A DNA stretch of 64,000 bases from a virus: IMG/VR virus record IMGVR_UViG_3300025012_000045, positions 1 to 64,000 of that record; one strand, given 5' to 3'. A program made the translations under genes and the position numbers. Positions 1-64,000 of this stretch are shown piece by piece. The notes under the pieces were generated by a model. The model had not been told where the DNA came from, did no database searches, and was given only the letters and a program-made list of their open reading frames with translations. Numbering within the stretch: the stretch's first letter is position 1; the number at the start of each line of letters is the position of its first letter.

Positions 1-252
1 AAAGCGGAAGATGCTGGTACTTATTGTATAGCAGTAAATCCAAAAGGCACAACAATAAAATGCAGTAATTGTGGTACTCTCGAACCTAAAACCCTCTATG
101 AACGCTCTCATAAGTGTACTACTTGTGGGTTTGAAACTACGAGAGACCATAATGCTGCTATTAATATTCATAAGTTGGGTATCAACTTGGTTGGTAATCA
201 TAATCATTTATGCTTATTTTCCGAATCTTCTTTGCCCCTTGGCAAGAAGTAG
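1..252 (+). CDS. tnpB: TnpB (IS200/IS605-family RNA-guided nuclease), C-terminal part, truncated by the window edge
   Basis: Frame 1 (not in the ORF track) reads KAEDAG..VNPKGTTIKCSNCG...HKCTTCGFETTRDHNAAINI...*: zinc ribbon plus RuvC-III motif. Confidence 0.9.
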   Translation, partial: KAEDAGTYCIAVNPKGTTIKCSNCGTLEPKTLYERSHKCTTCGFETTRDHNAAINIHKLGINLVGNHNHLCLFSESSLPLGKK

Positions 253-1549: not shown

Positions 1550-2107
1550 ATGAAAATAGTAATCACAGAAAGTCAATTAAAACGAGTTATTGAAAATATT
1601 ATAAATGAAGTTTATGATGATATTAATGAACCAGCAAAATTGAAAAATGTTAATATAGAAAAAAGTGATGAAAAACAATTAATTATTAAATTTTCAACAA
1701 TATCTGGAAATAATTATGCTATTGAAGCATATGTTGATAATTTTGATAGTAAAGTGGGGGAAACAACAATAAAAACAATACAACAATATAATGAAAATAA
1801 ACCAGTATATTTTATAAGATTTGGAACTTATGAAAATAATAAAATAGATGTAAAACCATTAACACAGAATAAAGAATCATTAACTATTTTAAGAACAGTT
1901 TTTCATTATTTAAATGAATACATTAATAAATATGATGTAAGAGTTATATATTTTACGGCAGATTCGGATAGTAGAATAGTTGCATATAAAAGATTTATAG
2001 ATAAATTTGGTAAAGATTTTCTATTATTTAGTGAAAAAGATAGATTAGTTGGCAATATTGGTTTTGTTATTAAAAAGGAAGATTATGAAAAAGCAATACA
2101 AAAATAA
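1550..2107 (+). CDS. putative head-packaged protein, module gene A copy 1 (possibly GNAT-like)
   Basis: Probable start ATG 1550 (MKIVITESQLKRVIE); paralog of 30057-30629 and 32508-33071. Confidence 0.75.
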   Translation: MKIVITESQLKRVIENIINEVYDDINEPAKLKNVNIEKSDEKQLIIKFSTISGNNYAIEAYVDNFDSKVGETTIKTIQQYNENKPVYFIRFGTYENNKIDVKPLTQNKESLTILRTVFHYLNEYINKYDVRVIYFTADSDSRIVAYKRFIDKFGKDFLLFSEKDRLVGNIGFVIKKEDYEKAIQK

Positions 2108-2363
2108 ATTATTAAAACTTAAAAATAATCATAAATTAACTTATAATGAATGTTATATAGTTTTAAAAGATATTTTATTTAAAGAATTAAATATAAAGAA
2201 TATAATAAAAGGTGATTTTCTTAATATTTATGAATTATATTATCAAATTGAAAAAATATTAAATATTCATATATGGGACGATGTGGCAGAAGAAATAAAA
2301 ACAGTTAATGATTTAAGTTTAATCGTTTTTAATGAATTATTAAATAAGAAGATAATAAAATAA
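2085..2363 (+). CDS. acyl carrier protein-like protein lacking the Ppant serine, module gene B copy 1
   Basis: GDFLNIYEL..IEKILNIHIWDDVAEEIKTVNDL aligns with ACP DSLDxVEL..[20 protein letters not shown]; probable start ATG 2085. Confidence 0.65.
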   Translation: MKKQYKNKLLKLKNNHKLTYNECYIVLKDILFKELNIKNIIKGDFLNIYELYYQIEKILNIHIWDDVAEEIKTVNDLSLIVFNELLNKKIIK

Positions 2364-4421: not shown

Positions 4422-4805
4422 ATGACTAGTAAATATTTATTTTATCCTTTTACAGGACAATATGAAAATGATAATAGTTTTAATGTTGCATTAATTAATT
4501 GTTGTGTTTATAAACAAATAGAAGTTCCATTATTAATCAATGTTGATAAAAATAAAGAAGAATATTTAAAAAAATTAAATCTTAAAAATGGGAATAACCT
4601 AAATAAGTTATTTCAATATGGGGGAATTGTTATAATAAATCATCCTTTATTAAATATTAATCATTCTTTTTTAATGATAAAAGATGAAGATAATACTTAT
4701 GTTTTGATTAATTCATTTATGGGCCCAAGGATATTATCTGGAATATCAAAAGAAAGAATAGAAAATACTTTTAATATCGTTGATGGATATTATTTTTCAA
4801 AGTGA
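4422..4805 (+). CDS. hypothetical protein
   Basis: ORF preceded by TATTTATA at 4408. Confidence 0.65.
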   Translation: MTSKYLFYPFTGQYENDNSFNVALINCCVYKQIEVPLLINVDKNKEEYLKKLNLKNGNNLNKLFQYGGIVIINHPLLNINHSFLMIKDEDNTYVLINSFMGPRILSGISKERIENTFNIVDGYYFSK

Positions 4806-4806
4806 A

Positions 4807-4863
4807 TGCTATTGACTTTTTAAAATATTATGTTTATCTTTGTATTATATATTAAAAAAATAA
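4807..4863 (+). promoter_or_regulatory. 57-bp early promoter, duplicated at 45276-45332
   Basis: tgctaTTGActtttt(a/c)aaatattatgttTATCTTTGtattatatattaaaaaaataa; one mismatch between copies. Confidence 0.8.
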
Positions 4864-5126
4864 CGTTTTAAGGGTTTATGAAGTTGGGGTTTAAAAATTC
4901 AAATGATATTAATGAAAACATAATGTAAAAAAATATTTTCCTGGACGGATTTGAACCGACATCTTCCTCTCAGTCTCGTAGTATCTTTTAAAAAGGATAT
5001 TATTAAAATTAAACAAAGAGGTGTTTTATCCGGTTAAACTACAGGAAAATATTTTTTTATTTCACAAAGATAACTGTTTAAAATGAAATTGTCAACCCCA
5101 ATTTCATAAACCCTTTGTTATCACAC
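4861..5126. repeat. attC-like imperfect inverted repeat
   Basis: TAAC-GTTTT-AAGGGTTTATGAAGTTGGGGTT ... AACCCCAATTTCATAAACCCTT-T-GTTATCACAC; homolog at 49313-49446. Confidence 0.7.
4936..5048 (-). ncRNA. tRNA-like RNA with a 46-nt expanded anticodon loop and no encoded CCA
   Basis: TTTCCTG TA GTTT AACCGGATA AAAC A CCTCT [46 nt] AGAGG AAGAT GTCGG TTCAAAT CCGTC CAGGAAA A; own TATCTTTG promoter at 5065-5072. Confidence 0.7.
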
Positions 5127-5159
5127 GTTTTAAAATCTTTTTTGTCAATCGGGATGATA

Positions 5160-5429
5160 TTATTTACAGAAATTCAATATCAATTCTTTTAGTTCAATGA
5201 AAAATTTGTATATTTCATATCTGTTAACAATAATCGCAATAATAATCGCAATAATCGCAAATAACTGTGTTGGTTTTTGTTTATGTAGTTTTGTTATTGG
5301 ATTAAATATAGTTGATTTTTTTAGTAGTTCAGATTCAGACGAATAGTCGGGGTTAACTGGTTTAATATTATTTCTGAATTTATTCCTTATACTTTCCAGA
5401 AATTTGTAATAAATGTCAAGTTGATTCAT
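5160..5429 (-). CDS. small membrane protein (island A cargo)
   Basis: One hydrophobic segment LFAIIAIIIAIIV; flanked by 17-bp direct repeats. Confidence 0.55.
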   Translation of the reverse strand: MNQLDIYYKFLESIRNKFRNNIKPVNPDYSSESELLKKSTIFNPITKLHKQKPTQLFAIIAIIIAIIVNRYEIYKFFIELKELILNFCK

Positions 5430-5671
5430 TTTTGTCAGTCGGGATATTTATAAGTATATGAAAATACATTCAATATCATATTCACCAAAATTAATAAAAC
5501 TTATTAAGATTTTTTATGATTATTTTAAAAAAGAAAATAAAATATGTAACTTATCCTAACTCTGTACCTGGAAAGAAAATCATAACTTATTATCTGTTTT
5601 TTGTACCAGTTTTAAGATTAACAGTAGAACATCAAAAACCAGATAATTATGATTTTAGAATACTATTAGAT

Positions 5672-5869
5672 TCACCTAGATTTTAAGGTTTTATTTATTT
5701 CTTTGAGTTCTTTACCAATTGTCTCAAGTGTAGTCAAAATGTGTTCATTTACTCTGGAATTAAAATAATGAATATACTCATTCATTTTTTCTTCTGGTAT
5801 TAGTCCTCCAGTATCTTTTTCAAATGATTTCTTCCAAAGTTCAAAATAATTTGGTGGTTTGTAAGTCAT
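5672..5869 (-). CDS. hypothetical protein (island A cargo)
   Basis: Directly downstream of TATCTTTG promoter (5874-5881, minus). Confidence 0.65.
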   Translation of the reverse strand: MTYKPPNYFELWKKSFEKDTGGLIPEEKMNEYIHYFNSRVNEHILTTLETIGKELKEINKTLKSR

Positions 5870-6034
5870 ACCACAAAGATATAACTTTATATTCTAAAAT
5901 CAAATTTATTTAATTTGTATAATACTAAAATCTTTATCTATTAATTTTTTATTTAAATACCAAACCAAAAATACTATTGTAAGTGAAAGTGTCAATAATA
6001 TAACTGTCCCAAAATAAAGAATTGTTATCACACT

Positions 6035-6829
6035 TTATTTTTGTCCGATTAAATCCTTATCAGGATCTAGATAATTGTCCTCAAGTATTGATTTGTCAAT
6101 TTTAATAACAAATTGGTCTTTAATATTTTGAAATGGTATCCCACCAGTTTTAACTATATTTATTCTAAATTCTTTTATGTCCTCATTTTTGTCCTCTATT
6201 TCATAATATACTTTACTGTTTATGATTTTCATTCTTTCAAGTTCTAATTTTAAGGTCTTGTACCCTTGAATCCCTTGTGTGTTTCTTATTATCTCTTCTG
6301 TCCGTTTCAAATGTTTTTTTGACATTATTTTCTGTCTTTTACAACCACCGTCAAGATGAAAACTTATTTTTAATTGTTCATAAATATTATTGTAAAGATT
6401 AATAGATTCGTCTTCATCTACAAGATAACATATTATTGGTAATTTATAATAATTAAGATGATCAAGAGTCATAAAATTGAATTCAAGATAGTATGTTTGT
6501 AATTGATTTTCTAAAACTTTCTTTAATGTCTTAATAAACATAAGTCGTAATTTATTTGATGTTTTTTTAAAATATTCTACTGTTCTTTTAAAATGTGTGA
6601 TAACTTGTTTATATAAAAATAATTTGGTTTTTAATATAATTTTACATACCTTTGTAAAGTAAAAGGGGGAAATATTCCGGGGAAATGGTGAGGATTTATC
6701 CAATCCACTGACCATACGGTGATCCCCCTTTTTATTATATCTACTGTCTTTTTTAAAATGTGTGATAACTAACAATAAATGAAGTTTTTTGGTCAAAAAC
6801 ATTCCAATTTTATTTAATATATTTTTCAT
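6035..6829 (-). CDS. island A leader-fused ORF (constant N-terminus MKNILNKIGMFL..VITHFKK)
   Basis: First 27 aa nearly identical to 45390; internal VITHFK and MTLDHL shared with 45882. Confidence 0.55.
   Translation of the reverse strand: MKNILNKIGMFLTKKLHLLLVITHFKKDSRYNKKGDHRMVSGLDKSSPFPRNISPFYFTKVCKIILKTKLFLYKQVITHFKRTVEYFKKTSNKLRLMFIKTLKKVLENQLQTYYLEFNFMTLDHLNYYKLPIICYLVDEDESINLYNNIYEQLKISFHLDGGCKRQKIMSKKHLKRTEEIIRNTQGIQGYKTLKLELERMKIINSKVYYEIEDKNEDIKEFRINIVKTGGIPFQNIKDQFVIKIDKSILEDNYLDPDKDLIGQK
6660..6734 (+). ncRNA. putative ~75-nt structured small RNA
   Basis: TTTG(6623)-N20-TACCTTTG(6647) promoter, then nested stems AAAAGGGGGA/TCCCCCTTTT, CCG/CGG, ATGGT/ACCAT, GGATT/AATCC. Confidence 0.55.
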
Positions 6830-6876
6830 AATTTATTTAATCTTAAAAGTTATAAAATAGCAATAAAAATTTCATT

Positions 6877-7110
6877 TTATTGTTTTTTATTTTTTGGTTT
6901 GATAATTGTATAGAGACATTTTTTACATGATAATCCTTTTTCATCATAAAATGTTGTTTCTCTAAATTCGTGTTCACATTTGATTTGTTCAATTATACCC
7001 TTGAATGCCCAATAAATTTTTTCTTTGGAAAAATTATCAAGTTCTTTCCACCATTTATTAACTTTTTTTCTATGTTTTAAAACATCTTGTTTTGTCAATA
7101 ATCTCACCAT
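6877..7110 (-). CDS. hypothetical small Zn-binding protein
   Basis: CEHEF...CKKC; its 3' end lies within the island A terminus. Confidence 0.6.
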   Translation of the reverse strand: MVRLLTKQDVLKHRKKVNKWWKELDNFSKEKIYWAFKGIIEQIKCEHEFRETTFYDEKGLSCKKCLYTIIKPKNKKQ

Positions 7111-7149
7111 AATTATTAAATATAAGTATATAAATTATAAAAGTAAATA

Positions 7150-7407
7150 TTATTTTTTATTAAAATAATTATTAATTCTTTCTTTGGTTTTTAATCTCAT
7201 TGCTCTTAATTCTCCAACAGTAATATTATGTCTTCTGGATAACCAGTTATCATAATATTCGTTATCATCTGTAAAATAAATATCATCAAGTGGAACCCAA
7301 ATTTTTAATATATCTTTTGTAATAAACCCAGAAATTCTTCCATCAGATTCAAGAATTTCATCATTATATGTTAAATCTTTTATCTGCTGTTTAGTAAATT
7401 TAATCAA
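7150..7407 (-). CDS. hypothetical protein
   Basis: ORF in the minus-strand operon. Confidence 0.6.
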   Translation of the reverse strand: MIKFTKQQIKDLTYNDEILESDGRISGFITKDILKIWVPLDDIYFTDDNEYYDNWLSRRHNITVGELRAMRLKTKERINNYFNKK

Positions 7408-7618
7408 TATCTTCTTTATTTTTCCTAAATTTTTTTACTTTTTTATTAGAAACATCATCAACATCATTTTCATATATGTGTACGATTTTTTTACAATCTG
7501 GGCACTCTACAAATTCAGTTCCCAAATTGTCTATTTTAACATTGCATTCTTTAAATTTTTCACATTTATCACAATGCCATTCTTCTTTGTCTATAATTCT
7601 CGTTTCAATCATACTCAT
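7400..7618 (-). CDS. zinc-ribbon protein
   Basis: CDKC...CPDC. Confidence 0.65.
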   Translation of the reverse strand: MSMIETRIIDKEEWHCDKCEKFKECNVKIDNLGTEFVECPDCKKIVHIYENDVDDVSNKKVKKFRKNKEDID

Positions 7619-7913
7619 TAATTAAAGGTTTTAATAATAAAAACGTTAAATAACAAATAAAACTACCCATAAATCCATAATTTATTAACTCTCCCAAATT
7701 AATATTAATAATAGGTATAATATAAGTTATTTTATATAAAAAATAAATAATAAATCCTGAATAAATTCCAGTACATTGACTACAACTGGTTAAATATCCC
7801 AATAATTTATTTTTTCTTTTACACCATTCTCTAAACGGTTTAAATAATTTAGATTGAGTTAAAATAAATGTCAACCCAATGGTAGATAATAAAAATTTAA
7901 TTAAATCTAACAA
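7605..7913 (-). CDS. DUF1360-like membrane protein
   Basis: Hydrophobic segments, LFKPFREW and LTSCSQCTG motifs. Confidence 0.6.
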   Translation of the reverse strand: MLDLIKFLLSTIGLTFILTQSKLFKPFREWCKRKNKLLGYLTSCSQCTGIYSGFIIYFLYKITYIIPIININLGELINYGFMGSFICYLTFLLLKPLINEYD

Positions 7914-8165: not shown

Positions 8166-8816
8166 TTATTTACGATATTTACTCAATATTTCAGCAGTTT
8201 CTTCACCAATTCTCTGCCAATCTTCTTCTGTTAAAGGTATTGGAACAAACTCTTTTTCACTTTCCTTTATTTCTTGTTTTGTTTTTTCAACAAATTTCCA
8301 GAATTTTCTTCCTGTTAATTTATTTATTCCTTGTTCATCAATATTATATCCGTTTTTTAATATTAATTCAATTATATTTTCAATCCTTTTTAAACTTTCT
8401 CCTTCTAAATCTTCATATAATTCAATAAAAAATATGTCTGGCTTTTCCATTTCTATTAATTTTTTAAACATTTCATTTATTTTTGATACAAATATCCTTT
8501 GATTTTGTAATTGTTTTGGTATATATTGTTTTGCTTCATCTCTTTTATAAATAGTTTTTACTGTTTTATTATTAACATCAGAAACAAGAAAATAATATAT
8601 TAATTCATTATATCCTTTACTTTTATCAAATCGTATAATCAAATCTAAATAATGAGTTTCATTATCATCTGGATCTTCCCCAATTGTAATAAAGGATATT
8701 TTATGCTCTTTATCCACTTTAGAATCATTACTAAATTCTGGAGAAACTTGCATTTCTTCTAATAATAATTTAGGATAATAAATTAATTCTTTAATCCTTT
8801 TTAATTGACTTTTCAT
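8166..8816 (-). CDS. putative head-packaged protein, paralog of 54580-55281
   Basis: QLKRIKELIYY..LLLEE leader; EEMQxS, TIYxR, LKNGY shared. Confidence 0.7.
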   Translation of the reverse strand: MKSQLKRIKELIYYPKLLLEEMQVSPEFSNDSKVDKEHKISFITIGEDPDDNETHYLDLIIRFDKSKGYNELIYYFLVSDVNNKTVKTIYKRDEAKQYIPKQLQNQRIFVSKINEMFKKLIEMEKPDIFFIELYEDLEGESLKRIENIIELILKNGYNIDEQGINKLTGRKFWKFVEKTKQEIKESEKEFVPIPLTEEDWQRIGEETAEILSKYRK

Positions 8817-11217
8817 TTTTAAATTTTTCTCTCCAATACTCTAATCTTTCTTTACCAATATCAACATATTCTTGATTTATTTCACAAGCATAAATATTTT
8901 CTTCCTTATATCCAGATTTTATTGCACCGATTACTTCACTCATTACCCCAGCAAAGGGAATATATAATTTTTGATCACACTCTTTAGGCAATTTAAACAA
9001 ATTCAAAATTCTATAATTTAATGATATTGGTTTTAAACAAATATGTTTATTTTTTTCTTCATTTAATCCTGCATTTTTTTCTTCTCCAGATACTTTTTTA
9101 CAATAATTCAATAAATCATGTTCTCCTTCTTCATATCGACTTATTGGGTTTAACCACTCAAAAAAATCATATAATAAATACTTATTTGACCCATAAATAG
9201 AATGAAAAATTTTATGACAATTTTCACATAATGTTATTCCATTATTTATATATAATCTATATTCAGGATAAGTTGAATAAGGTAAAATATGATGAGCAAC
9301 TAAATCACCTTCGGATTTTTTATAACATTTTTGACAAATATATTTATCTCTATAGAATATTTCTTTTCTCCAAATATTATATTCATAGCCTTCTCTTTTT
9401 TTTATTCTATCTTCTTCTAATTTTTCTGAATTCCAATTTGGGCTAGTTTCACCAGTTAATCCAAACATAGGATTTTTATCACCAGATCTAAATAATTTCT
9501 TTTCACAAGAATTACACCTAAATAGTTCTTCTTTTTTTATAAAAAATCTCCATTGGGGGGTATCAATTTTATTACAATATTTACACATATATTTTATTCT
9601 AATTGAAGAATTTTCAGGTAAGTCCCAAACCTCTATCCAAATTTTAGTATTAAATGGAACTCTTATTCCATTACTTTTTGTTTTTCTTTTTGGTATAATG
9701 TATCCATTTTTAATATATTCTTCTATTTTTCTACATCCTCTGTCTATTCTAATTTCCACTTGCTTAGAAATTAAAAATTCTTCATCATTTTTATCACATT
9801 TATGTAACACTCTTGAACATCCACCACTATCTCCATAAGTTTCTAAAAGATATTTATTGTCAAACTTACCGTATATTCCTCTATCACTTTGATATTCCCC
9901 CTGTGTTTTATTTCTTTTATGTTTATCTGGAGACATATATCCAGATTTTAATATTCCAGACTGGGTATTAAGAATTTGGGAAGTGCCATTATCCACAAAT
10001 ACTTGAGCTGGATATCTTCCAGATTCATGTAATTTTATATCTTTACCTTCATATCCACCCTCATATACATTTTTTGCTGCCTTATCTGTTTTCCAGCTAC
10101 CTTTTCCACCTAATCTTGGATCATCAACTTCTGGGTTAATTGGTACACGGTTTTCATTAATATTTACAACACTAGGAGATATTGTTGAATCTTCGTTAAA
10201 AGATAATAAATCATTTAAAACAGAACCATTTTTACATGGTTTATGAAAAATCATAATTGTCTCAACACATTGTTTAAATGGGGCAACCCCATATTTAAAT
10301 GAATCAAAACATTTTGCTAAATCACTAGCTGGTAAAGTTATATCAAATTCTTCTTCACCAGAAAATGACCACACATTTCCTTTTGTTAATCCTGCCTTAC
10401 CCCTTCCAATTATTTCCCTTTCAAGTTCTTCAATATTATCAAATGGGGCACTTAATAATTCACATAATTTATTAAATTGTTCTATTGTTGGGGTAGTTTT
10501 TCCTGTTATCCAATTATGAACTCGTCCAGTCAATCCATCAGTTTTAGAAAGAAAATGTTTTGATATATCATTTTGATTTAAATTTAATTCTTTCATTCTT
10601 TTTTCCATCCACTTTCCAAACCAAACATAATTTTTTCCTCCTCTTTTATCAATCATTTTTCCAGCATCAACCCCTTTTGGCATTGAATTTATAAAATACC
10701 AATATAGTGATTGTTGAATTTCAAATCCATTTTTAACAGCATAATATTGAAATGCTGGGAGTTGTCTATCAATTCCATAAATTATTGTAAACCCTCCATG
10801 TTTTAATATTCTAAAACTTTCTTTAAAAAATAAATCAAGTGTATTTTCATCAAACCCATCCCATTTATTCATGAAATCTTTTGGTTTCCCTTCTATAATA
10901 AATCTTCCTGTTTCTTTATCTATGATCCATTTTGAAGATAAATTATAAGGTACATCACTAAATATAGTATTAAAATAAAAATCTGGATATGTTTTTATAT
11001 CATCAAAAACATTATCACATTTAATATTAACAGATTTATTTATTTTTTTAAATACAGGAATATTACCATGTTCTAATTCATATTCTTTATTATCTTTTAA
11101 ATTTTTCAACAAATACTTATCATTATCTAATTTTTTTAAATATTGCCCCTCATTACCTTTTTTAGTAATAAATAAATCACCTTCATTGAGGTCTTTTAAT
11201 AAAACTTGACTTTCCAT
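8791..11217 (-). CDS. N6A/N4C DNA methyltransferase with in-frame XRE-HTH and HNH insertions
   Basis: SDVPY catalytic motif, RILKHGG, H..LKPISL, IPFAG SAM motif; inserted HTH; CQKC..AHHI..NGITLCENCHKIFH HNH. Confidence 0.85.
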   Translation of the reverse strand: MESQVLLKDLNEGDLFITKKGNEGQYLKKLDNDKYLLKNLKDNKEYELEHGNIPVFKKINKSVNIKCDNVFDDIKTYPDFYFNTIFSDVPYNLSSKWIIDKETGRFIIEGKPKDFMNKWDGFDENTLDLFFKESFRILKHGGFTIIYGIDRQLPAFQYYAVKNGFEIQQSLYWYFINSMPKGVDAGKMIDKRGGKNYVWFGKWMEKRMKELNLNQNDISKHFLSKTDGLTGRVHNWITGKTTPTIEQFNKLCELLSAPFDNIEELEREIIGRGKAGLTKGNVWSFSGEEEFDITLPASDLAKCFDSFKYGVAPFKQCVETIMIFHKPCKNGSVLNDLLSFNEDSTISPSVVNINENRVPINPEVDDPRLGGKGSWKTDKAAKNVYEGGYEGKDIKLHESGRYPAQVFVDNGTSQILNTQSGILKSGYMSPDKHKRNKTQGEYQSDRGIYGKFDNKYLLETYGDSGGCSRVLHKCDKNDEEFLISKQVEIRIDRGCRKIEEYIKNGYIIPKRKTKSNGIRVPFNTKIWIEVWDLPENSSIRIKYMCKYCNKIDTPQWRFFIKKEELFRCNSCEKKLFRSGDKNPMFGLTGETSPNWNSEKLEEDRIKKREGYEYNIWRKEIFYRDKYICQKCYKKSEGDLVAHHILPYSTYPEYRLYINNGITLCENCHKIFHSIYGSNKYLLYDFFEWLNPISRYEEGEHDLLNYCKKVSGEEKNAGLNEEKNKHICLKPISLNYRILNLFKLPKECDQKLYIPFAGVMSEVIGAIKSGYKEENIYACEINQEYVDIGKERLEYWREKFKNEKSIKKD

Positions 11218-29782: not shown

Positions 29783-30076
29783 TTAATTATTTTTATATTT
29801 ATCATATAACAATTCATGAGTAACAATTAATGTTAAATCACCAATTGTTTTTAATAGTTCTAAATCTTCATCCCAAATATTAATATCCAAATCGCTCTCA
29901 ACTTCACATAAATAAGCCAAAATTTCTCCGAATTCATCACCTTCTAATTTATCTGATTTTTTAAATTTTTTATTTTTACTTATAAAATATTTTTTTAAAT
30001 ATTCATAACACTCATCATAAGTTAAATTATCTATTTTTTTTAATTCCGATAAAATTTTATTTAATTGATCTATCAT
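29783..30076 (-). CDS. ACP-like protein lacking the Ppant serine, module gene B copy 2
   Basis: EVESDLDINIWDEDLELLKTIGDL. Confidence 0.65.
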   Translation of the reverse strand: MIDQLNKILSELKKIDNLTYDECYEYLKKYFISKNKKFKKSDKLEGDEFGEILAYLCEVESDLDINIWDEDLELLKTIGDLTLIVTHELLYDKYKNN

Positions 30077-30629
30077 AATCTTCTTTTTTAATCATAAAAC
30101 TTATATTACCCACTAACCTATCTTTTTCATTAAAAAGATAAAAATCATAAAAATGTTTATTAATTATATATTTATATACTTCAATTTTTTTTTCTCCTTC
30201 TGATATAAAATAAATAATTCTTACATCATATTTATCAATATATTTTTTTAAATAATGAAAAACAACTCTAAATATTAAAAATTGTTCATGTTCATTTGTT
30301 ATTATTCTGGCATCAATTTTACCATCTTTATAAATTCCAAATCTTACTTTATATACTGGTTTATTCCCATTATATTGTTGTATTGTTTTTATTGTTGTTT
30401 CTCCAAGTTTACTATCAAAATTATCAATAATTGCCTCTAAAACATAATTATTCATATTTGTAGAAAATGTTATAACTATTTCTTTTCCATTATCCTTTAA
30501 TATTTTTACATTTTTTATATCATTTTCTGAAACATTAAGATCAGAAAATATTTCTGATAATATTATATTTTCATCAATAATATTCTCTATTAATCTTTTA
30601 AATTGATTTTCTGTTAATTTTATTTTCAT
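30057..30629 (-). CDS. module gene A copy 2
   Basis: MKIKLTENQFKRLIE; DNFDSKxGETTIKTIQQYN, EKDRLVGNI. Confidence 0.75.
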   Translation of the reverse strand: MKIKLTENQFKRLIENIIDENIILSEIFSDLNVSENDIKNVKILKDNGKEIVITFSTNMNNYVLEAIIDNFDSKLGETTIKTIQQYNGNKPVYKVRFGIYKDGKIDARIITNEHEQFLIFRVVFHYLKKYIDKYDVRIIYFISEGEKKIEVYKYIINKHFYDFYLFNEKDRLVGNISFMIKKEDYDRSIK

Positions 30630-32245: not shown

Positions 32246-32533
32246 TTACCTTTTTTTATTTCTTATCAATTCATGAGTAACAATTAATGTCAAATCATTA
32301 ATTGTTTTTAATCCTTTTAAATCTTCATCCCAAATATTAATATTTAAATCTTTCTCCAACATACAAAATAACCATAAAATACCATATCCGTCTCCATCTT
32401 TTAATTTATTTGATTTTTTAAAATTCATAATTTCTGACATTATTTCTTTTAAAATATCATAACATTTATTATATGTTAAATTATCTATTTTTTTTAATTT
32501 TAATATTTTATTTTTTATTTGTTGATCTGTCAT
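32246..32533 (-). CDS. ACP-like protein lacking the Ppant serine, module gene B copy 3
   Basis: MLEKDLNINIWDEDLKGLKTINDL. Confidence 0.65.
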   Translation of the reverse strand: MTDQQIKNKILKLKKIDNLTYNKCYDILKEIMSEIMNFKKSNKLKDGDGYGILWLFCMLEKDLNINIWDEDLKGLKTINDLTLIVTHELIRNKKR

Positions 32534-33071
32534 AATCTTCTTTTTTAATCATAAAACTTATATTACCTATTAATCTATCTTTTTCATTAAAAAAATAAAA
32601 ATTTTTAAAGTGTTCATTAATTATGTATTGGTACAATCTAATTTTTTGCTCTCCTTCAGATATAAAATAAATAATTCTTATATCATATTTATCAATATAT
32701 TTTTTTAAATAATTAAAAACAACTTTTAATATTAAATATATTTCATTATAATTTGTTATAGTTCTGGCATCAATTTTACCATTCTTATAAATTCCAAATC
32801 TTACTTTATAAACTGGTTTATTTTCATTATATTGTTGTATTGTTTTTATTGTTGTTTTTCCAACTTTACTATCAAAATTATCTATAACTCCTTCTAAAAC
32901 ATAATTATCTATATTCGTAGAAAAAGTTATAACTATTTCATTTTCATTATCTTTTAATATTTTTACATTTTGTATTTCGTTTTTAGAGATGTTAAGGTCA
33001 GAAAATATTTCTGATATTATTATATTTTCAATTAATCTTTTAAATTGGGATTCTGTTATTAATATTTTCAT
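32508..33071 (-). CDS. module gene A copy 3
   Basis: MKILITESQFKRLIE; highly similar to 30057-30629. Confidence 0.75.
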   Translation of the reverse strand: MKILITESQFKRLIENIIISEIFSDLNISKNEIQNVKILKDNENEIVITFSTNIDNYVLEGVIDNFDSKVGKTTIKTIQQYNENKPVYKVRFGIYKNGKIDARTITNYNEIYLILKVVFNYLKKYIDKYDIRIIYFISEGEQKIRLYQYIINEHFKNFYFFNEKDRLIGNISFMIKKEDYDRSTNKK

Positions 33072-42013: not shown

Positions 42014-42387
42014 ATAGACAATTTTCTTCCCAACAATCTTTCAAGCCTTTTATCCCCCGCAGCCCTTCCTGTTAATTCAGTAATTAAATCATCAACCACA
42101 TCAGACATATTTTTATTTGATTGTTGGGATATTTTAGGACGATTTGCAATCTCATCAATAGTTGGGGCATCATCATAATAATCAGGACCTTTTTCTGATT
42201 TTTCTTTTCTTATTGCTGATAGTTCTTTTGCATGATTTTCCATTTGAATATCCTCAGAATTCAAAATTTTTACATTTTCATCAGAAGATTTCAATATTTC
42301 TTCTTTAAGACCGTCAAATTCCTGTTGGGTAATAACTTTATCCTTTAAAAGTTGTCCCAGCTCCGTTAATTGTTCAATTTTTTTCAT
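42010..42387 (-). CDS. SHOCT-like early protein
   Basis: LLKDKVITQQEFD; early promoter at 42431. Confidence 0.6.
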   Translation of the reverse strand: MKKIEQLTELGQLLKDKVITQQEFDGLKEEILKSSDENVKILNSEDIQMENHAKELSAIRKEKSEKGPDYYDDAPTIDEIANRPKISQQSNKNMSDVVDDLITELTGRAAGDKRLERLLGRKLSI

Positions 42388-42508
42388 TGTTTTTATGTTT
42401 TAATTATTAAATAAATATCATTTTATAGTACAAAGGTAAGTAAAATAATTGACATTTCCAAGTAAAAAGTGAATTATTTTTAAAATAAATAGATATTTAT
42501 ATAAGAAT

Positions 42509-43548: not shown

Positions 43549-44160
43549 TTAATTTTTATTAAAAACGTGCTCAGCATTATTTGTTGTTTTTTCACATATC
43601 CCATTAAATGTTGACCAATACATTTTAACTGATGAAGTAATTATTTTATTATTAAAATTTATTATGTATTTTTTTTCTATAATGCTACATGCGCCATATA
43701 TTAGATTTTTATCTAATAAAAATTCATTATGTCCCCTTGAAGTTTTCCATCCATCCATAATTTTTTCTATAATATAAAACATATCACGGATATTAGTATC
43801 ATAAGTCCCAAAGTAAAAATTTTCACCCCAGCACATAATATCATTTTTATTTTTTACATATTTATTAAATCTATCTTTTAATGTTTTCAATTGTAAAAAA
43901 TTATCTTTTTGATTTTCTTTATGCCCAGCATATGCAATTATAGAATCTTTATCATCTATTATTGAATCGGTTTGTAGTGATAAATATGTTGAATGATGGA
44001 CAGACATATTATATACTTCTTCGTTCCAAATAAGTTCATTTAGTCCATTTGATACTCTGTATTCATTAATTTTTTCAAATAATAGAGAATCATATTTGGT
44101 TTGTGAGAATAAATTAAACCAAATAAAAGTTAAAAATAATATCATTATAAGTTTTTTCAT
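43549..44160 (-). CDS. CAP/SCP domain secreted protein
   Basis: Signal peptide; INEYRVSNGL, GEN, WKTSRGHN. Confidence 0.8.
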   Translation of the reverse strand: MKKLIMILFLTFIWFNLFSQTKYDSLLFEKINEYRVSNGLNELIWNEEVYNMSVHHSTYLSLQTDSIIDDKDSIIAYAGHKENQKDNFLQLKTLKDRFNKYVKNKNDIMCWGENFYFGTYDTNIRDMFYIIEKIMDGWKTSRGHNEFLLDKNLIYGACSIIEKKYIINFNNKIITSSVKMYWSTFNGICEKTTNNAEHVFNKN

Positions 44161-44235
44161 TGTTTTTATGTTTTAATTATCAAATAAATATCATTTCATA
44201 ATACAAAGGTAAGTATAATTTTTGACATATCCAAA

Positions 44236-44718
44236 TTATTTCAAAGAAAAATCAATTATATTAACTAATTCATTATCTAGAAATTCTTTGTTTATAGTAC
44301 CGTCAGATAATTTTTTAGATACCCTATCAAAAAATCCCCTTACTAAAGGTATTAATCCCTCAATGTTAATATTTTCTTTTGAAACTAATCCTTCTTTTTT
44401 AATCATTGCTATCTCTATCCATTTTTCAAAATTTTCTTCTTCTGGTTCTACTGGTCCAGTATATAATAAATCAAAGTAGATTTCTTTTTTTAATCTTTTG
44501 TTATTAGGCTTTGTTCTATATATATTTAATTGAAGTAGTTTTCCTACTATTTCTTTTTTCCAGTGATTTACATTTTCTTTTTCATGTGGAAAAGTTATAA
44601 TATAAAATATATGATTCAAAATATCATCAGAAATATTATTTAAAAGAATTTCCAGTCTTTTCCTCTCAACTGCCAATTCAGTCATAAGAATTGATTCGTA
44701 TATGGACATTAATTTCAT
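44236..44718 (-). CDS. DUF29-like protein
   Basis: ILNHIFY..NHWKKEI. Confidence 0.45.
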   Translation of the reverse strand: MKLMSIYESILMTELAVERKRLEILLNNISDDILNHIFYIITFPHEKENVNHWKKEIVGKLLQLNIYRTKPNNKRLKKEIYFDLLYTGPVEPEEENFEKWIEIAMIKKEGLVSKENINIEGLIPLVRGFFDRVSKKLSDGTINKEFLDNELVNIIDFSLK

Positions 44719-44805
44719 TTTCTTTAAATTTAATATTTTTAATTGTTAATTAGAATACAAAGGTAAGTATAATTTTTGACATTTCCAAATATAAAGTGAA
44801 TTATT

Positions 44806-45275: not shown

Positions 45276-45332
45276 TGCTATTGACTTTTTCAAATATTAT
45301 GTTTATCTTTGTATTATATATTAAAAAAATAA
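45276..45332 (+). promoter_or_regulatory. 57-bp early promoter, copy 2
   Basis: Matches 4807-4863 with one mismatch. Confidence 0.8.
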
Positions 45333-45389
45333 AGAACAATAAAATGAAATTTTTATTGCTATTCTATAATCTTTAGAATTAAATAAATT

Positions 45390-45629
45390 ATGAAAAATAT
45401 ATTAAATAAAATTGGAATGTTTTTGATCAAAAAACTTCATTTATTGTTAGTTATCACACATTTTAAAAAAGGGGAATTTATAACAGAAGAATCCATACAA
45501 ATATTAAAAGAATGTGTATTAGACCTCAAAAAATGTAATCAAACATTAGACAGAATAGACAAGGGACTTGAAGATTATGAAATGAAATTAATAGAGGACG
45601 ATTTTAATAATAAAATAAACTACAATTAA
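45390..45629 (+). CDS. island B leader-fused ORF
   Basis: MKNILNKIGMFLIKKLHLLLVITHFKK, then diverges from the island A copy immediately after the core site. Confidence 0.6.
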   Translation: MKNILNKIGMFLIKKLHLLLVITHFKKGEFITEESIQILKECVLDLKKCNQTLDRIDKGLEDYEMKLIEDDFNNKINYN

Positions 45630-45631
45630 TA

Positions 45632-45799
45632 TTACCAAATATGTTCTCTTTTTAAACTACCCATTTTTTCTATTGACTTATTATGATAATCTCTTAATTT
45701 TTCAACACGTTCCTCAATTTTATTTAGTTTCTCACTTAATACTTTGACTTCTTTTTGAAGTTCCTGAACTATTTTATTGATATTGTTTTCCATAGACAT
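45632..45799 (-). CDS. 55-aa coiled-coil protein (not in the track)
   Basis: MSMENNINKIVQELQKEV...HIW*; TAAATTTG promoter at 45815-45822. Confidence 0.55.
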   Translation of the reverse strand: MSMENNINKIVQELQKEVKVLSEKLNKIEERVEKLRDYHNKSIEKMGSLKREHIW

Positions 45800-45881
45800 T
45801 TTTGTTGGTGTTTACAAATTTACAACATTTTACTCTTTACAAAAATAAAAATTAGATTATATTTATAAAAAAAATAAAATT

Positions 45882-46154
45882 ATGAAAAAAATAATTTACT
45901 TCTTTATACAAGTTATCACACATTTTAAAAAAACATTTCAGTATTTTGACAGACATTTTAAAAAAAGACGACAGAAAAGTGAATTTAGAAAAATGACATT
46001 AGACCATCTTGACACACTTAAAAGTTTACCAAAACAAAATAGAAAAGAATATTTAAAAAGATTGGATTATATGGAAAATACATTAGGATTTCTTGGACGA
46101 GATTTTGTAGCCAGAAAACGTTTCTTCAACAGACTTCAAAATTTCTTCAATTGA
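45882..46154 (+). CDS. island B ORF spanning the second core site
   Basis: QVITHFKK..EFRKMTLDHL, homologous to the internal part of 6035-6829. Confidence 0.6.
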   Translation: MKKIIYFFIQVITHFKKTFQYFDRHFKKRRQKSEFRKMTLDHLDTLKSLPKQNRKEYLKRLDYMENTLGFLGRDFVARKRFFNRLQNFFN

Positions 46155-46454
46155 AATATAATCCATTAAAATTATGTTTTGGAATTCATATAAGTTTTTA
46201 GGTTTTATTTGTTCTTCAAAACGTCTCATAACATCACCGTTACGTGAAGATAAAATATTATAATACATATCATCAGTTATGACTGTAAATTTATTAGGGT
46301 TGTTTCTTTTGACAATATCAAAAATTTTATATGAATATGTGTCAAAATTTTTATTTTCAAACAAATTTCTTAACTCTTTGACTTGACTTTTATTAAAATA
46401 TTTAATACCAAATAAAAAACGATATTGTTTACTTGATTTAATTTTGTTAAACAT
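46083..46454 (-). CDS. hypothetical protein downstream of a tRNA 5'-half
   Basis: 123-aa ORF. Confidence 0.5.
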   Translation of the reverse strand: MFNKIKSSKQYRFLFGIKYFNKSQVKELRNLFENKNFDTYSYKIFDIVKRNNPNKFTVITDDMYYNILSSRNGDVMRRFEEQIKPKNLYEFQNIILMDYISIEEILKSVEETFSGYKISSKKS

Positions 46455-46468
46455 ATTAAAAAAATTAA

Positions 46469-46500
46469 AGGGGTGTTTTATCCGATTAAACTACAGGGAC
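46469..46500 (-). other. tRNA-like 5' half (acceptor 5' strand, D-arm, anticodon 5' strand)
   Basis: GTCCCTG TA GTTT AATCGGATA AAAC A CCCCT; homolog of 5017-5048. Confidence 0.65.
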
Positions 46501-46503
46501 ATT

Positions 46504-46731
46504 TTATTCATTATCAAATTCATTAAAAAATTCCTCAAATGTAATATTCAAATATTTACAAATCAAATCCAATGTTATTATCCCAATATTTCTGTTTGCC
46601 AGTTCAATTCTTCCTATGTTTATTCCAGTATCAAAAAAAAATACTTCCTGTGTTATTTTTCTTTCCTCTCTTAACTGTTTTATTCTCAAACCTATTTTCT
46701 TCAACAATATCTCATTTTTCCTCTTTCCCAT
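46504..46731 (-). CDS. XRE-family HTH regulator
   Basis: IGLRIKQLREERKITQE..IGRIE..N...TLDLICKYLNITFEEFF. Confidence 0.9.
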   Translation of the reverse strand: MGKRKNEILLKKIGLRIKQLREERKITQEVFFFDTGINIGRIELANRNIGIITLDLICKYLNITFEEFFNEFDNE

Positions 46732-46827
46732 GATAAAAAATTTGTGGGAAAGAACAGATTAAATAAAAAAATTATTAAATACCATTTGGTATTTTCAATA
46801 ATTATGTTTTTCTTTGTCGGTTTAAAA

Positions 46828-47265
46828 ATGAGAAAAAAAAGTCAAAATATATTTTTTCATATTATTTTTCCTTTATTTGTTGGGGGAATGATATATATTC
46901 TGTTTCGTAATGAAAATCTATTAATGTTCAGATGGTTTGAATTTTGGGGACTAAATGATTTAATATTGAATATAAGAAGATTGGTTAATGGTATTCAATT
47001 ATTTGAATGGGTTTTATATTCTTTACCAAATGGTTTATGGATTTATTCTTTAATATCATTTATGATAATATTATGGAATAAGAAAATAAATTTGGATAAT
47101 ATTTTATGGTTTATTATAATAATATCATTGGGGATTTTTTGGGAAATATGTCAGGGAATTGAAATTATAAGTGGTACATTTGATTGGATTGATTTGATTT
47201 TTTGTTTTGTTTTATCCGTTATTTCTTTATTTCAAATTAAAATTATTAACCTTAAAAAAATATAA
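46828..47265 (+). CDS. multi-pass membrane protein
   Basis: LYSLPNGLW, EICQ..ISGTFDWID; probable start ATG 46828. Confidence 0.7.
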   Translation: MRKKSQNIFFHIIFPLFVGGMIYILFRNENLLMFRWFEFWGLNDLILNIRRLVNGIQLFEWVLYSLPNGLWIYSLISFMIILWNKKINLDNILWFIIIISLGIFWEICQGIEIISGTFDWIDLIFCFVLSVISLFQIKIINLKKI

Positions 47266-47269
47266 AATT

Positions 47270-47533
47270 ATGAAAACAATAAAACATTTAATTTCGGTAT
47301 TGATTATTGGGTTTTTTATTATTATAGGAGTAGGAAGTAATAATGATAATAATACAACCAAAACAGAGGAAAAAGAATATAATTATGTACAATGTTGTAA
47401 AAATTGTAAAGGTAAGGGTACTGTTAGAGAATTTAGTAACAAAACTTATGATTGGGTGTACAGTTCTTGTCCAAATTGTAATGGTACGGGAGAAAATATT
47501 TATAAAGAAAAAGGTCAATGGAGATGTTTGTAA
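47270..47533 (+). CDS. membrane-anchored DnaJ-type zinc-finger protein 1
   Basis: N-terminal TM; CKNCKGKG...CPNCNGTG. Confidence 0.75.
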   Translation: MKTIKHLISVLIIGFFIIIGVGSNNDNNTTKTEEKEYNYVQCCKNCKGKGTVREFSNKTYDWVYSSCPNCNGTGENIYKEKGQWRCL

Positions 47534-47575
47534 CTAGAAATTATAAATTCTCCTTTGTTATAAAATCTATAAATT

Positions 47576-47836
47576 ATGAAAACAATAAGACACATTTTAT
47601 CAGGGTTATCTATTATATTTTATATTTTTCTAGGATTTGGAAGTGATGATTCTACTTCATCAACTGATGAAACAAAAGATAACTCAACAAGAGAAAAAAA
47701 ATCAACATGTTGTTGTCATTGTTATGGGTTGGGTAAAAGATTAAATGAAATAACAGGTGAATATGGAATATGTAATTCTTGTGATGGAACTGGTAAAGAT
47801 ATATATAATGTAACTGGTAGATGTAATTGTAACTAG
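47576..47836 (+). CDS. membrane-anchored DnaJ-type zinc-finger protein 2
   Basis: Paralog of the previous gene; CCHCYGLG...CNSCDGTG. Confidence 0.75.
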   Translation: MKTIRHILSGLSIIFYIFLGFGSDDSTSSTDETKDNSTREKKSTCCCHCYGLGKRLNEITGEYGICNSCDGTGKDIYNVTGRCNCN

Positions 47837-47860
47837 TAAATATAATTATCATTAAAAATT

Positions 47861-48475
47861 ATGAAAAATTTATTTTTAATAGGATTTCTTATAATACAAA
47901 TAATAAATACATATTCACAAACATATTCAGTGGAATATATTCGGTCTGAAACAACGAAATACTTGGAAAGATGTAAAGGAAGTATGTTATATCTTTATGG
48001 AGATAAAACTCCTTCTATGTGTAAAAACTCTCCTTACTGGGGTAAGAAAAAAATATACGAGCCAGAGATGATTGACGAAACCACCTATTCAGGTAAAATG
48101 ATCAGATATTTTGAGGGGACAAATAATATTTGTACAATTTCCTATTACTCAACTGGAAAAGAAACCAAAGATATTTTATTTCATCCAGATGGGACGATTT
48201 ATTCAATAATAAAATATCAATATGGGAAAAAAGAAGGGGAAGTAACTTTTGTTGACAGAAAAGGGAAAATAATATTAATAGGTAACTATGAAAATGACGA
48301 CCCTGTTGGTAATTGGTATACTCCTACTTGGTGGGATAATGGTTTTCCTATTACAAGTTCTTATGCCCGTAATCAATTTCCAGGTGCCATAGATGAAATG
48401 GTTCAAATAATACAATTTTATAAAAATAGTCATTATAGATTTATAGGTAATTTAGATATTCAAAATTGTGAATAA
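47861..48475 (+). CDS. secreted MORN-like repeat (YwqK-like) protein
   Basis: Signal peptide; FHPDGTI..YQYGKKEG..GNYENDDPVGNW. Confidence 0.6.
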   Translation: MKNLFLIGFLIIQIINTYSQTYSVEYIRSETTKYLERCKGSMLYLYGDKTPSMCKNSPYWGKKKIYEPEMIDETTYSGKMIRYFEGTNNICTISYYSTGKETKDILFHPDGTIYSIIKYQYGKKEGEVTFVDRKGKIILIGNYENDDPVGNWYTPTWWDNGFPITSSYARNQFPGAIDEMVQIIQFYKNSHYRFIGNLDIQNCE

Positions 48476-48785
48476 ATTATTTCTTTTCATCATTTTATTA
48501 TTCTCGTTAAAATCAGACAGAATATTTATTAACACTGACTGTTCTTTCAAAGGTCATAAACTATACGGAAAAATACAATATGTTGACAAATTCCCTGACG
48601 TTAAAGTACAGGTAGTTGATAATTTTCCAGATTTAAAAGTACAAATAGTTGACAATTTCCCAGACAAGTGTGGAAAATGGAAGATTGTTAAAGAATTCCC
48701 AGACCTTAAAGTTCAAATTGTAAAATCTTTCCCAGATATTAAAATTCAGTATGTTGACAAATTTCCAGGGTTAAACAAAAATTAA
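48468..48785 (+). CDS. secreted repeat protein (VDxFPDLKVQ repeats)
   Basis: About six FPD-containing repeats after a signal-like N-terminus. Confidence 0.7.
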   Translation: MNKLFLFIILLFSLKSDRIFINTDCSFKGHKLYGKIQYVDKFPDVKVQVVDNFPDLKVQIVDNFPDKCGKWKIVKEFPDLKVQIVKSFPDIKIQYVDKFPGLNKN

Positions 48786-48789
48786 ATCT

Positions 48790-49065
48790 TTGTCTCTAAA
48801 AAAAGAACAAGTCAAAGAATTGTCTGAATTATTAACAGATGAGGATATTTTTATAGTTTTTATAAAACTTGTAGAATTTTTACAGTCAGAAATTAATGAG
48901 TTTATTGGTTCCAATAAAAATGAAATTGTTAAAGATTTTATGAACTCTAGTTTTGTTAAACATGATTATTCTGAAATATCAAATGAAAATAAAGAAGAAA
49001 TTTTAAAATTGACCTATTATCACTTAAAACAATACTTTCTAAAAAAACTAGATAGAACAACTTAA
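48790..49065 (+). CDS. hypothetical protein
   Basis: 91-aa ORF. Confidence 0.5.
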   Translation: MSLKKEQVKELSELLTDEDIFIVFIKLVEFLQSEINEFIGSNKNEIVKDFMNSSFVKHDYSEISNENKEEILKLTYYHLKQYFLKKLDRTT

Positions 49066-49248
49066 TTTTTTCAATCTATCATTAACGTCTTTAATTATCC
49101 AAGAAATTGTTAACATATCATAAAGTATTTTTGATTTTTCCATCTCACATTTGACACCTTTTGTTTTCCATAAATAACATGGATGAACTAACATTTTTTC
49201 AATAGTATCAGTTTTACAATAATCTATTTTTGGTTTTTCATTTTTCAT
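49048..49248 (-). CDS. hypothetical protein
   Basis: Late motif directly upstream. Confidence 0.5.
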   Translation of the reverse strand: MKNEKPKIDYCKTDTIEKMLVHPCYLWKTKGVKCEMEKSKILYDMLTISWIIKDVNDRLKKLSCSI

Positions 49249-49312
49249 ACACCTATAAATATACAGACAAGGAATTTTTTAATATTCTGACAATAACGGA
49301 GGACATTAAAAC

Positions 49313-49446
49313 GTGTGATAACAAAGGGTTTAAGAAATGGTTTAGGATTGTGTGTGAGGTTATTTTGAATTATTCACTTACTTTTGTGTTTATATGACAG
49401 TTTTGTAATTTTTTAAACCACCACTTCTCAAACCCTTAAAACGTTA
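49313..49446. repeat. attC-like imperfect inverted repeat, copy 2
   Basis: GTGTGATAAC-A-AAGGGTTTAAGAAATGG ... CCACTTCTCAAACCCTT-AAAAC-GTTA. Confidence 0.7.
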
Positions 49447-49511
49447 TTTTTTGTTAAATATTATTTACTTTTATTATTTTATTAGTATTTTTGTATTAAA
49501 TAAGTAATAAA

Positions 49512-63936: not shown

Positions 63937-64000
63937 GATTTTTAAGGTTTTGACAGTTAATTATGACACAAAGGTAAGTAAAATAATTGATATATCCAAA

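Follow-up and report, generated by a model that had tools for sequence, protein, structure and literature searches.

What delimits the accessory genes that recur in clusters in a large phage genome, and are the short words repeated at their borders the sites of a recombination system? The question is raised by a stretch of 64,000 nt (hereafter the window), the first 64 kb of the 100,074-bp IMG/VR virus record IMGVR_UViG_3300025012_000045 (G000). Two clusters of the window, termed islands A and B, share a promoter, a leader, a terminal hairpin and a repeated 10-nt core word. An earlier interpretation made from the letters alone (the sequence-only reading) had taken them for a cassette system in which a tyrosine recombinase inserts, inverts or swaps cargo. 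With island C, found on a second contig, they are paralogous accessory-gene islands, at least three in number, in an AT-rich jumbo phage with Bacteroidota-type promoters. The cargo is bracketed by a covarying inverted repeat of 17 to 19 nt. The words formed by GTT and the next 7 nt are proposed to be crossover sites of a site-specific recombination system bracketing the cargo, a reading to which we assign a probability of about 0.45.

G000 was obtained from groundwater metagenomes and has 24% G+C, dense coding and the standard code. Its completeness was estimated at 30% (CheckV), corresponding to a whole phage genome of ~330 kb. The intergenic regions bear TTG/TTTG-N19-21-TAnnTTTG motifs, which we take to be the Bacteroidota housekeeping promoter pattern, the promoter role being assumed from the consensus only. 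Island C lies on a 91-kb IMG/VR contig (G001), which is probably another piece of the same phage genome because it is equal to G000 in G+C and has end repeats in common with it, and because a contig bearing the paralogue is equal to the window in depth in sequencing run X1. The end repeats comprise window 1-198, which recurs inverted at G001 566-763 (198 bp at 99.5%), and G000 99932-100074, which recurs at G001 78463-78605 (143 bp at 97.9%). The depth in X1 was 24.7 for that contig and 21-24 for the window. The assemblies probably broke at repeats of one single genome. Together the two contigs amount to 191 kb, about 58% of the estimated genome, and this is the scope of the recombinase and motif searches described below.

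The core word GTTATCACAC was found seven times, at 5117(+), 6024(+), 6595(-) and 6760(-) in island A and at 45450(+), 45912(+) and 49313(-) in island B, compared to 0.05 copies expected from shuffles. No further copy was present in the 100,074-bp record with 1 mismatch allowed. The word is therefore confined to the two loci over the whole record, as had been claimed for the window, and the genome-wide scatter that the sequence-only reading had named as a possible objection to itself was not observed. In six of the seven copies the match continues as GTTATCACAC-R-TTTTAA, and the general form of the site is a variable arm followed by GTT-N7-R-TTTT-AA, with two forward and two reverse sites in island A and two forward and one reverse in island B. 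Four of the seven lie within coding sequence and give the V-I-T-H of a conserved N-terminal peptide. Core A1 (6760-6769, minus strand) occupies codons 21-24 of the leader open reading frame (ORF), and its direct repeat A2 (6595-6604, minus strand) supplies the V-I-T-H with which the second gene body begins. Core B1 (45450-45459, plus strand) forms the end of the island B leader module, and core B2 (45912-45921, plus strand) lies in ORF 45882-46154 (90 aa). A2 and B2 are homologous (6544-6643 aligns with 45972-45871 at 72.5%), and the sequence upstream of B2 is a diverged leader copy (45831-45932 aligns with 45367-45470 at 68%). Core Ah (5117-5126, plus strand), in which GTTATCACAC is followed by GTTTTAA, lies at the inner foot of hairpin A. 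The loop of a 9-bp A/T stem contains a solitary core (6024-6033, plus strand), which is inverse to A1 and A2 and lies 2 nt past the stop codon that ends the second gene body. This solitary core was considered as an attC remnant and rejected, as no stem or long hairpin follows it. Resemblances of the core to a DnaA box or a CRP half-site were by eye and do not hold. A search of IMG/VR with the 17-mer form of the core gave 13 matches, all of which were single chance matches.

The most informative data came from the third island. The 79-aa leader protein of island B, used as the query of a protein search, retrieved P0002 (103 aa), which has the same 21-residue leader followed by VVCNFFKK, not VITHFKK, and which was located on G001 (locus L021). 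Island C (L021:9889-11884) consists of promoter P, the leader ORF, ~1.6 kb of cargo, the hairpin and a second P, inverted. Its leader site carries GTTGTTTGTA and its hairpin foot TACAAACAAC, in place of the GTTATCACAC and GTGTGATAAC of islands A and B; GTTGTTTGTA and TACAAACAAC were each found once in the 20-kb locus, and the C-type 10-mer is thus present exactly twice. The leader site reads ...TTGTTA-GTT-ATCACAC-A-TTTT-AA in A and B and ...TTGTTA-GTT-GTTTGTA-A-TTTTTTT in C. The hairpin foot, read on the other strand, is ...AACCCTTT-GTT-ATCACAC-G-TTTT-AA in A and B and ...AACCCTTT-GTT-GTTTGTA-G-TTTTTT in C. Hence ATCACAC/GTGTGAT of A and B is replaced in C by GTTTGTA and, at the hairpin foot, by its exact reverse complement. 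Six of the seven core bases differ between the two types, and they do so at both sites, while the GTT and R-TTTT flanks are constant. The T-run after the core is longer in C, again at both sites. Position 11 is A at all leader sites and G at all hairpin sites.

The chance of such matching 7-mers, given the composition, is about 3-4e-4. Inverted GTT-N7-RTTTT / AAAAY-N7-AAC pairs with equal N7 within 8 kb were found in the 191 kb at the three islands only. Within each island, the core on the leader side can pair with the inverse core at the foot of the hairpin along 10 nt, or along 17-19 nt if the flanks are counted, and calculated core duplexes were -15 to -23 kcal/mol for cognate and -2 to -9 kcal/mol for non-cognate pairs. 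A lone inverted repeat of 16/17 nt within 5 kb carries little weight, as ~3 per 100 kb arise in Markov shuffles. The weight of the covariation derives instead from the homologous position of the sites and their concerted change. These data support the view that the sites act as a functional pair and are not scattered motifs. A long degenerate terminal inverted repeat (P, 120 nt and core) was considered and rejected, the leader and hairpin regions being no more alike than shuffles. Between P and the cores, leader and hairpin share no homology, and the core pair is therefore deduced to be a discrete element and no relic of long terminal inverted repeats. Between islands, identity is 96-100% outside the cores (P, leader and stems) and below 65%, or absent, inside.

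The modules outside the cores were characterized as follows. Promoter P is predicted at 4807-4863 (plus strand) in island A, facing the hairpin end, and at 45276-45332 (plus strand) in island B, facing the leader end. It has the form TTGACT-N-TATCTTTG, a Bacteroidota-type -33/-7 pattern, and ends in AAAAAAATAA. The two are alike over 57 nt at 98%, which agrees with the earlier claim of one 57-bp promoter at both loci, except that P is one of a wider family, with at least nine similar members in G000. In its exact 57-bp form, including the tail TATTATATATTAAAAAAATAA, P has four copies in the 191 kb, all at island ends; two face leaders and two face hairpins. A search for relatives with a 20-mer of the promoter retrieved only an unrelated phage with a similar promoter. 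The leader claimed to be common to A and B was recovered as an inverted repeat of 159 nt at 92% (6748-6906 and 45313-45471). Leader module A (6770-6906, minus strand) comprises the 5' untranslated part and the first 20 codons, abuts the end of gene 6877-7110, and is 92% identical to island B and 96% to island C. Leader module B (45333-45459, plus strand) ends in core B1, the corresponding ORF being 45390-45629 (79 aa). A leader search in JGI metagenome contigs found island C assemblies only.

No promoter P is present at the leader end of island A. The opposite orientation of A and B behind the same promoter, as described in the sequence-only reading, is therefore real as a layout. Inversion as its cause is less well supported, because the two-ended P of island C fits better: the simplest account of the orientations is that A and B each retain one end of a double-ended frame such as that of C, not that a flip took place. 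The ancestral island would have had inverted P at both ends, of which A would have kept the hairpin-end copy and B the leader-end copy.

The terminal hairpin, likewise claimed for each locus, was confirmed in A and B, in both cases with closure by AAC and GTT. Hairpin A (4859-5133, plus strand) is closed by AAC at 4862-4864 and GTT at 5117-5119, its arms (4870-4891 and 5094-5115) pair over 22 bp with one G.T, and the fold of 4852-5150 gave -75.4 kcal/mol (z = -6.5). Its loop is ~200 nt and holds a tRNA-like gene. Hairpin B (49313-49452, plus strand) begins with the inverse core GTGTGAT+AAC (49313-49322; the AAC of the closing pair is 49320-49322), followed by arms at 49323-49343 and 49415-49437, the spacer AAAAC, GTT at 49443-49445 and ATTTTTT. 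The form common to all three islands is N7-AAC-A-stem-loop-stem-AAAAC-GTT with stems of 18-22 bp and loops of 70-200 nt; AAC and GTT close the hairpin in 3/3, and ATTTTTT follows the outer GTT in 3/3. The stems of B and C are identical and their loops different. Between A and B/C at least three pairs of the stem, compared by eye from the arm sequences, have changed on both sides with pairing kept. Every non-Watson-Crick position of the stems and of the core pair is a G.T on the strand antisense to the leader, and folding favours that strand: the arm duplexes were -37.9 kcal/mol on it versus -34.1 kcal/mol on the other for A, -29.9 versus -23.9 for B and -37.9 versus -26.2 for C, and the core pairs are likewise more stable on it. 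Sequence searches with the hairpin foot and the outer end found only island C and chance matches. A 19-mer of the hairpin gave 29 chance matches in GTDB genomes, none with the 3' arm, so that neither IMG/VR nor the GTDB genomes yielded a relative of the hairpin by sequence. No related phage carrying the islands was found in the searched collections, nor was one found via flanking or cargo proteins. The Rfam search matched nothing except the tRNA-like gene.

A naturally occurring length difference was found at the direct cores of island A. The 264-aa ORF (6035-6829, minus strand) consists of the 21-aa leader, a core, 55 read-through codons, the second core and the A2 body, and it is open through these 55 codons, the genome having 24% GC. 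This window form (P0004) is present on seven contigs. A shorter protein, P0003 (209 aa, two ENA contigs), has the leader joined straight to the A2 body at VITHFK/R and is without exactly the 165 bp that separate A1 from A2 (6605-6769, minus strand). The difference could have arisen by site-specific excision or by ordinary recombination between the 19-nt direct repeats, and both fit. P0005, a 45% homologue of the A2 body in another phage, has an unrelated N terminus, and the leader-plus-core module is therefore deduced to be portable relative to the bodies fused to it. Within the 165 bp, antisense to the ORF (6621-6735, plus strand), a promoter-like TTTG-N20-TACCTTTG motif (6623-6652) is followed by a ~75-nt GC-rich hairpin (about 6664-6728; GGGGGA...TCCCCC) and a U-run. 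The stretch may be a small inserted RNA gene that keeps its host ORF open.

From these elements a frame can be written along the leader strand: P; the 21-codon leader, ending ...TTAG/TT, where the slash marks the proposed joint; the 7-nt core; A-TTTT; 1.5-3.9 kb of cargo; AAAAC; the inverse core; AAC; A; stem, loop and stem; AAAAC; G/TT; and ATTTTTT, after which an inverted P is present in A and C. Analysis of this frame suggests that integron-type insertion at G/TT fits best and that inversion between the inverted cores, of the shufflon or Gin type, comes second. Integration and excision at G/TT are preferred because they explain why the inverse core always abuts the hairpin-closing AAC. A circular unit with a hairpin would be joined at G/TT to an attI-like site inside the leader. 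The cargo start would then bear a palindrome half matching the inverse core at the hairpin foot, and the outer GTT would precede what once lay after the leader. A circle or tandem form would join the outer end of the hairpin, ...AAACCCTTAAAACG, to TTATCACACATTTT (A, B) or TTGTTTGTAATTTT (C). An empty site would join the leader, ...TTGTTAG, to TTATTTTTTT, and an inverted form would join the leader, ...GTTATCACAC, to GTTTTAAAATC (A) or GTTTTAATGTCC (B). Recombination at the cores, the kind of enzyme and the effect on expression are all three what we infer.

Several findings weigh against this proposal. Profiles for tyrosine, serine, Y1, IS110 and rve enzymes (PF00589, PF00239, PF01797, PF01548 and PF00665, respectively) matched nothing in G000 or G001, and PF00589 gave no match in either (100 kb and 91 kb) even at E <= 1. 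The search for a XerC- or IntI-like integrase elsewhere in the genome, suggested by the sequence-only reading, was thus negative in both contigs, and its remark that no recombinase is visible extends beyond the window to all five families in 191 kb. There is also no recombinase gene or domain beside any of the three islands. Logan contigs of four runs were colinear with the window and contained no inversion, circle or empty site, and a second, independent assembly of island C was identical, with no rearranged form; contigs cannot reveal rare rearranged forms, and Logan contigs break at repeats. Homologous genes are present at both cargo ends in all three islands (an FKKT-type body and an 89/81-aa gene), and by their sequences the islands look like diverged copies of one ancestor, not independently captured cassettes. 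On the leader side the core is part of a conserved coding motif. Each island has one hairpin, in which only the AAC/GTT triplets match the attC consensus and the stems are far longer than attC L boxes. The P0003 indel is explicable by ordinary recombination, and the frames that open from inverted sites have only 11-27 codons. No related phage carrying the islands was found in the searched collections, nor was one found via flanking or cargo proteins.

Four unusual joints were seen in the Logan contigs. The joint 5414 to 6767 is cross-mapping of island C, and the joints 4572 to 7808 and 6830 to 5526 have short sides and were set aside. A joint 6608 to 6748, seen in X1 and X5 at full phage depth, skips 139 bp and leaves two cores 25 nt apart. 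It is not the P0003 deletion and is possibly a fourth, unsampled locus.

The earlier claim that a recombinase acts on the cargo at these sites can therefore be retained in part. In its favour are the paired covarying sites, the layout resembling attI x attC, the strand bias of folding and the P0003 indel; against it are the lack of an enzyme in 191 kb and of any rearranged form in the contigs. The foremost rival, itself unlikely, is passive paralogy, in which the islands would have arisen long ago as segmental duplicates within a hyperplastic region, their modules being kept alike by gene conversion and the cores having no dedicated role. Promoter, leader and terminator modules would then be homology arms for ordinary recombination, as in the promoter and stem-loop (PeSL) cassettes of T4-type phages, in which such shuffling is documented (PMC2839356, PMC4122927). 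The homologous genes at the cargo ends and the genome-wide family of P agree with this, sharp breaks in identity are expected where homology arms stop, and the P0003 deletion needs just the 19-nt direct repeat. Left unexplained, however, are the concerted change of six of seven bases at sites 1.6 kb apart (p about 3e-4) and the constant abutment of the inverse core on the hairpin-closing AAC. Conversion between the arms is ruled out, since leader and hairpin do not form a long, degenerate inverted repeat. The islands do resemble PeSL cassettes in their repeated promoter and stem-loop modules around small ORFan genes in variable regions of a large phage of lytic type, and in that the modules coincide with the borders of indels and replacements. 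They differ in that the stem-loop and promoter of PeSL have the same direction and act by plain homology, whereas P abuts the hairpin and points into it in A and C, and in that a separate covarying core pair surrounds the cargo.

Covariation is also the classical signature of base pairing, and pairing may be sought in RNA instead of DNA. The core and inverse core would then pair within one long transcript and close the island into a loop; in a variant, the hairpin and adjacent core would serve in regulation or processing, for instance as a stem for RNase III or as a small RNA derived from the 3' end. The inward P would make antisense (bottom-strand) RNA in which all wobbles are G.U, and the 17-19 bp helices are indeed stabler on the bottom strand, which the hairpin-end P of A and C would transcribe. 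A hairpin followed by a U-run on the leader strand also resembles an island terminator. We nevertheless consider pairing at the RNA level improbable: the partners are 1.5-3.9 kb apart, the helix in sense mRNA has a conserved A.C mismatch, and island B is without an inward promoter. Moreover, a block change of six of seven bases, with four transversions and fixed flanks, is unlike the scattered, wobble-mediated evolution of helices. Hardly credible is a non-autonomous transposon, that is, cargo with terminal inverted repeats GTT-N7-RTTTTAA and a transposase encoded elsewhere. It would account for 17-19-nt terminal inverted repeats that differ between island types, and TnpB genes are present on both fragments. 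The repeats are flanked by no target-site duplication, however, the flanks (leader and hairpin) are the same in all three copies, and no DDE, Y1 or IS110 transposase was found in 191 kb. In addition, the sequence past the right end of TnpB is unrelated to the core, and the leader-side repeat lies inside a continuous conserved coding motif.

If the words are crossover sites, the nearest known arrangement is the integron. Once integrated, a cassette opens behind the docking-site G with that portion of its R' which is complementary to R'' of the cassette's own attC, and the distal R' of this attC forms a chimera with the following unit. The attC sites of integrons take part in the reaction as folded bottom strands. 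The islands show the same polarity of promoter, G/TT docking site, cargo, inverse core ending in AAC, imperfect hairpin and G/TT. The start of each cargo can pair with the inverse core at its own hairpin, the outer core being a chimera. The attC fold is present in all three islands as AAC and GTT closing an imperfect hairpin with an unpaired spacer and a loop that varies. Folding favours the strand opposite the leader-driven genes, and a predicted promoter lies upstream of the cargo. AAC/GTT are the most conserved attC positions, and attI/attC and attC/attC sites are chimeric (PMC4889954). Integrase-less attC clusters (CALINs), which have been reported in phages (PMC4889954, PMC9892861), are defined by at least two attC sites close together (PMC4889954).

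Several features separate the islands from both. No IntI, nor any other tyrosine recombinase, was found with them in 191 kb. Their single hairpins form no array, A and B being 38 kb apart and C on the other fragment, and no further hairpin of the family was found in the 191 kb. The cargo of 1.5-3.9 kb has 5-12 ORFs on both strands with their own promoters. The analogue of the R box is 10 nt and the stems are 18-22 bp. Compared to the consensus RYYYAAC/GTTRRRY, TGATAAC and the ACAAAAC-type words match in AAC only, while the agreement of GTTATCA and GTTGTTT with GTTRRRY is limited to GTT and, in part, the base after it. Because the docking site is internal to an ORF, the first cargo gene is a translational fusion. 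In addition, the hairpins of A and C are each faced by a second, identical promoter. The islands are thus outside the definitions of integron and CALIN, and the closest layout is a chimeric attI x attC junction.

Inversion systems were compared in the same way. Invertible segments of the Gin/Cin/Min type are present in phages Mu, P1 and p15B. The islands share with shufflons a 7-bp core with one conserved and one variable arm, several sites in both orientations within 2-4 kb, and a constant N-terminal coding part that stops at the first site. In shufflons of the R64 type the Rci invertase acts on sfx sites (PMC11852207, PMC5430464), which have a variable left arm, a 7-bp core and a conserved right arm and occur in both orientations (PMC11852207). 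The islands differ in having no Rci or Hin-family gene in 191 kb, and their core varies between islands, whereas it is constant within a shufflon. No inversion isomers were present in the contigs of the four runs or in the second island C assembly. Frames past the inverted sites end after 27 (Ah), 16 (6024), 25 (Bh) and 11 (Ch) codons and offer no alternative C termini. Swapping of C termini in the manner of shufflons is consequently unlikely, and the islands are not members of the shufflon family. It is conceivable, although quite doubtful, that they are a gene-capture platform of new design. Its docking site would lie in a leader ORF, making the cargo a leader fusion; its folded site would carry a 10-nt, platform-specific core (orthogonal, like heterospecific lox); identical promoters would read from both ends; and its recombinase would be unlike known families or supplied by the host.

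The cargo itself was described as unrelated between the two loci in the sequence-only reading, which is not wholly so, since the second genes of A and B are homologous. The cargo of island B (45460-49312, both strands) has about 12 small ORFs, which include an Xre-type helix-turn-helix protein (46504-46731, minus strand), a membrane protein, two Cys-rich paralogues, a phrog_6462 protein and a 204-aa protein with a signal-like N terminus. The tRNA-like gene in the loop of hairpin A (4936-5048, minus strand) matches the Rfam tRNA model at 50 bits and is not called by ARAGORN. A 42-nt insert in its anticodon loop folds into a small hairpin, the acceptor stem is lengthened to a helix of 19 bp with a U-run at the end, and the gene has a -33/-7 promoter of its own at about 5067-5095 (minus strand). 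A search for relatives with a 26-mer of this gene gave no match. Island B has a partial copy (46470-46505, minus strand), comprising the 5' half and the first ~20 nt of the insert, directly upstream of a 123-aa ORF.

Outside the islands, G000 encodes a ribonucleotide reductase, a DnaB-type helicase, an HNH-domain protein and a TnpB. The HNH endonuclease domain is at residues 628-671 of an 808-aa protein (8791-11217, minus strand) with no other Pfam match. The TnpB genes (OrfB_IS605 with Cas12f-like TNB) form a pair that is 85% identical, at window 50391-51620 (plus strand) and G001 89265-90520 (minus strand). Their homology stops 8 nt before and 18 nt after the ORF, no TnpA was found, and the G001 copy has tRNA-like sequence on both flanks. 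The genome is rich in paralogous modules; one is present in three copies at window 1709-2168, 29993-30452 and 32512-32811 (a 460-nt inverted repeat at 74% and a 300-nt direct repeat at 87%). A tandem array in coding sequence, made of about 8-12 units (AAAGAAAATAATCCTGATAAAGTTAAAGAAA...) with repeat periods of 45 and 57 nt, lies at 56866-57334, inside ORF 56815-57630. A second, minus-strand promoter class (reverse complement: TTGAC/TTGAT-N-TACCTTTGTA), with ~40 nt of extended identity, has five copies in the window, at 1424-1504, 42382-42462, 44155-44235, 44709-44789 and 63920-64000.

The covarying core pair provides a precise handle for testing DNA and RNA models alike. If the pairing takes place in RNA, it would join the two ends of a phage operon transcript over kilobase distances, which would be a rare case. 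If the cores are recombination sites, the phage would hold and exchange accessory genes by a logic related to that of integrons and shufflons. Three features would then be distinctive, namely single large units, translational fusion to the leader, and island-specific cores that bar recombination between units. The islands would in that case be a possible source of short orthogonal site pairs for DNA engineering and an addition to the cassette systems of large Bacteroidota phages.

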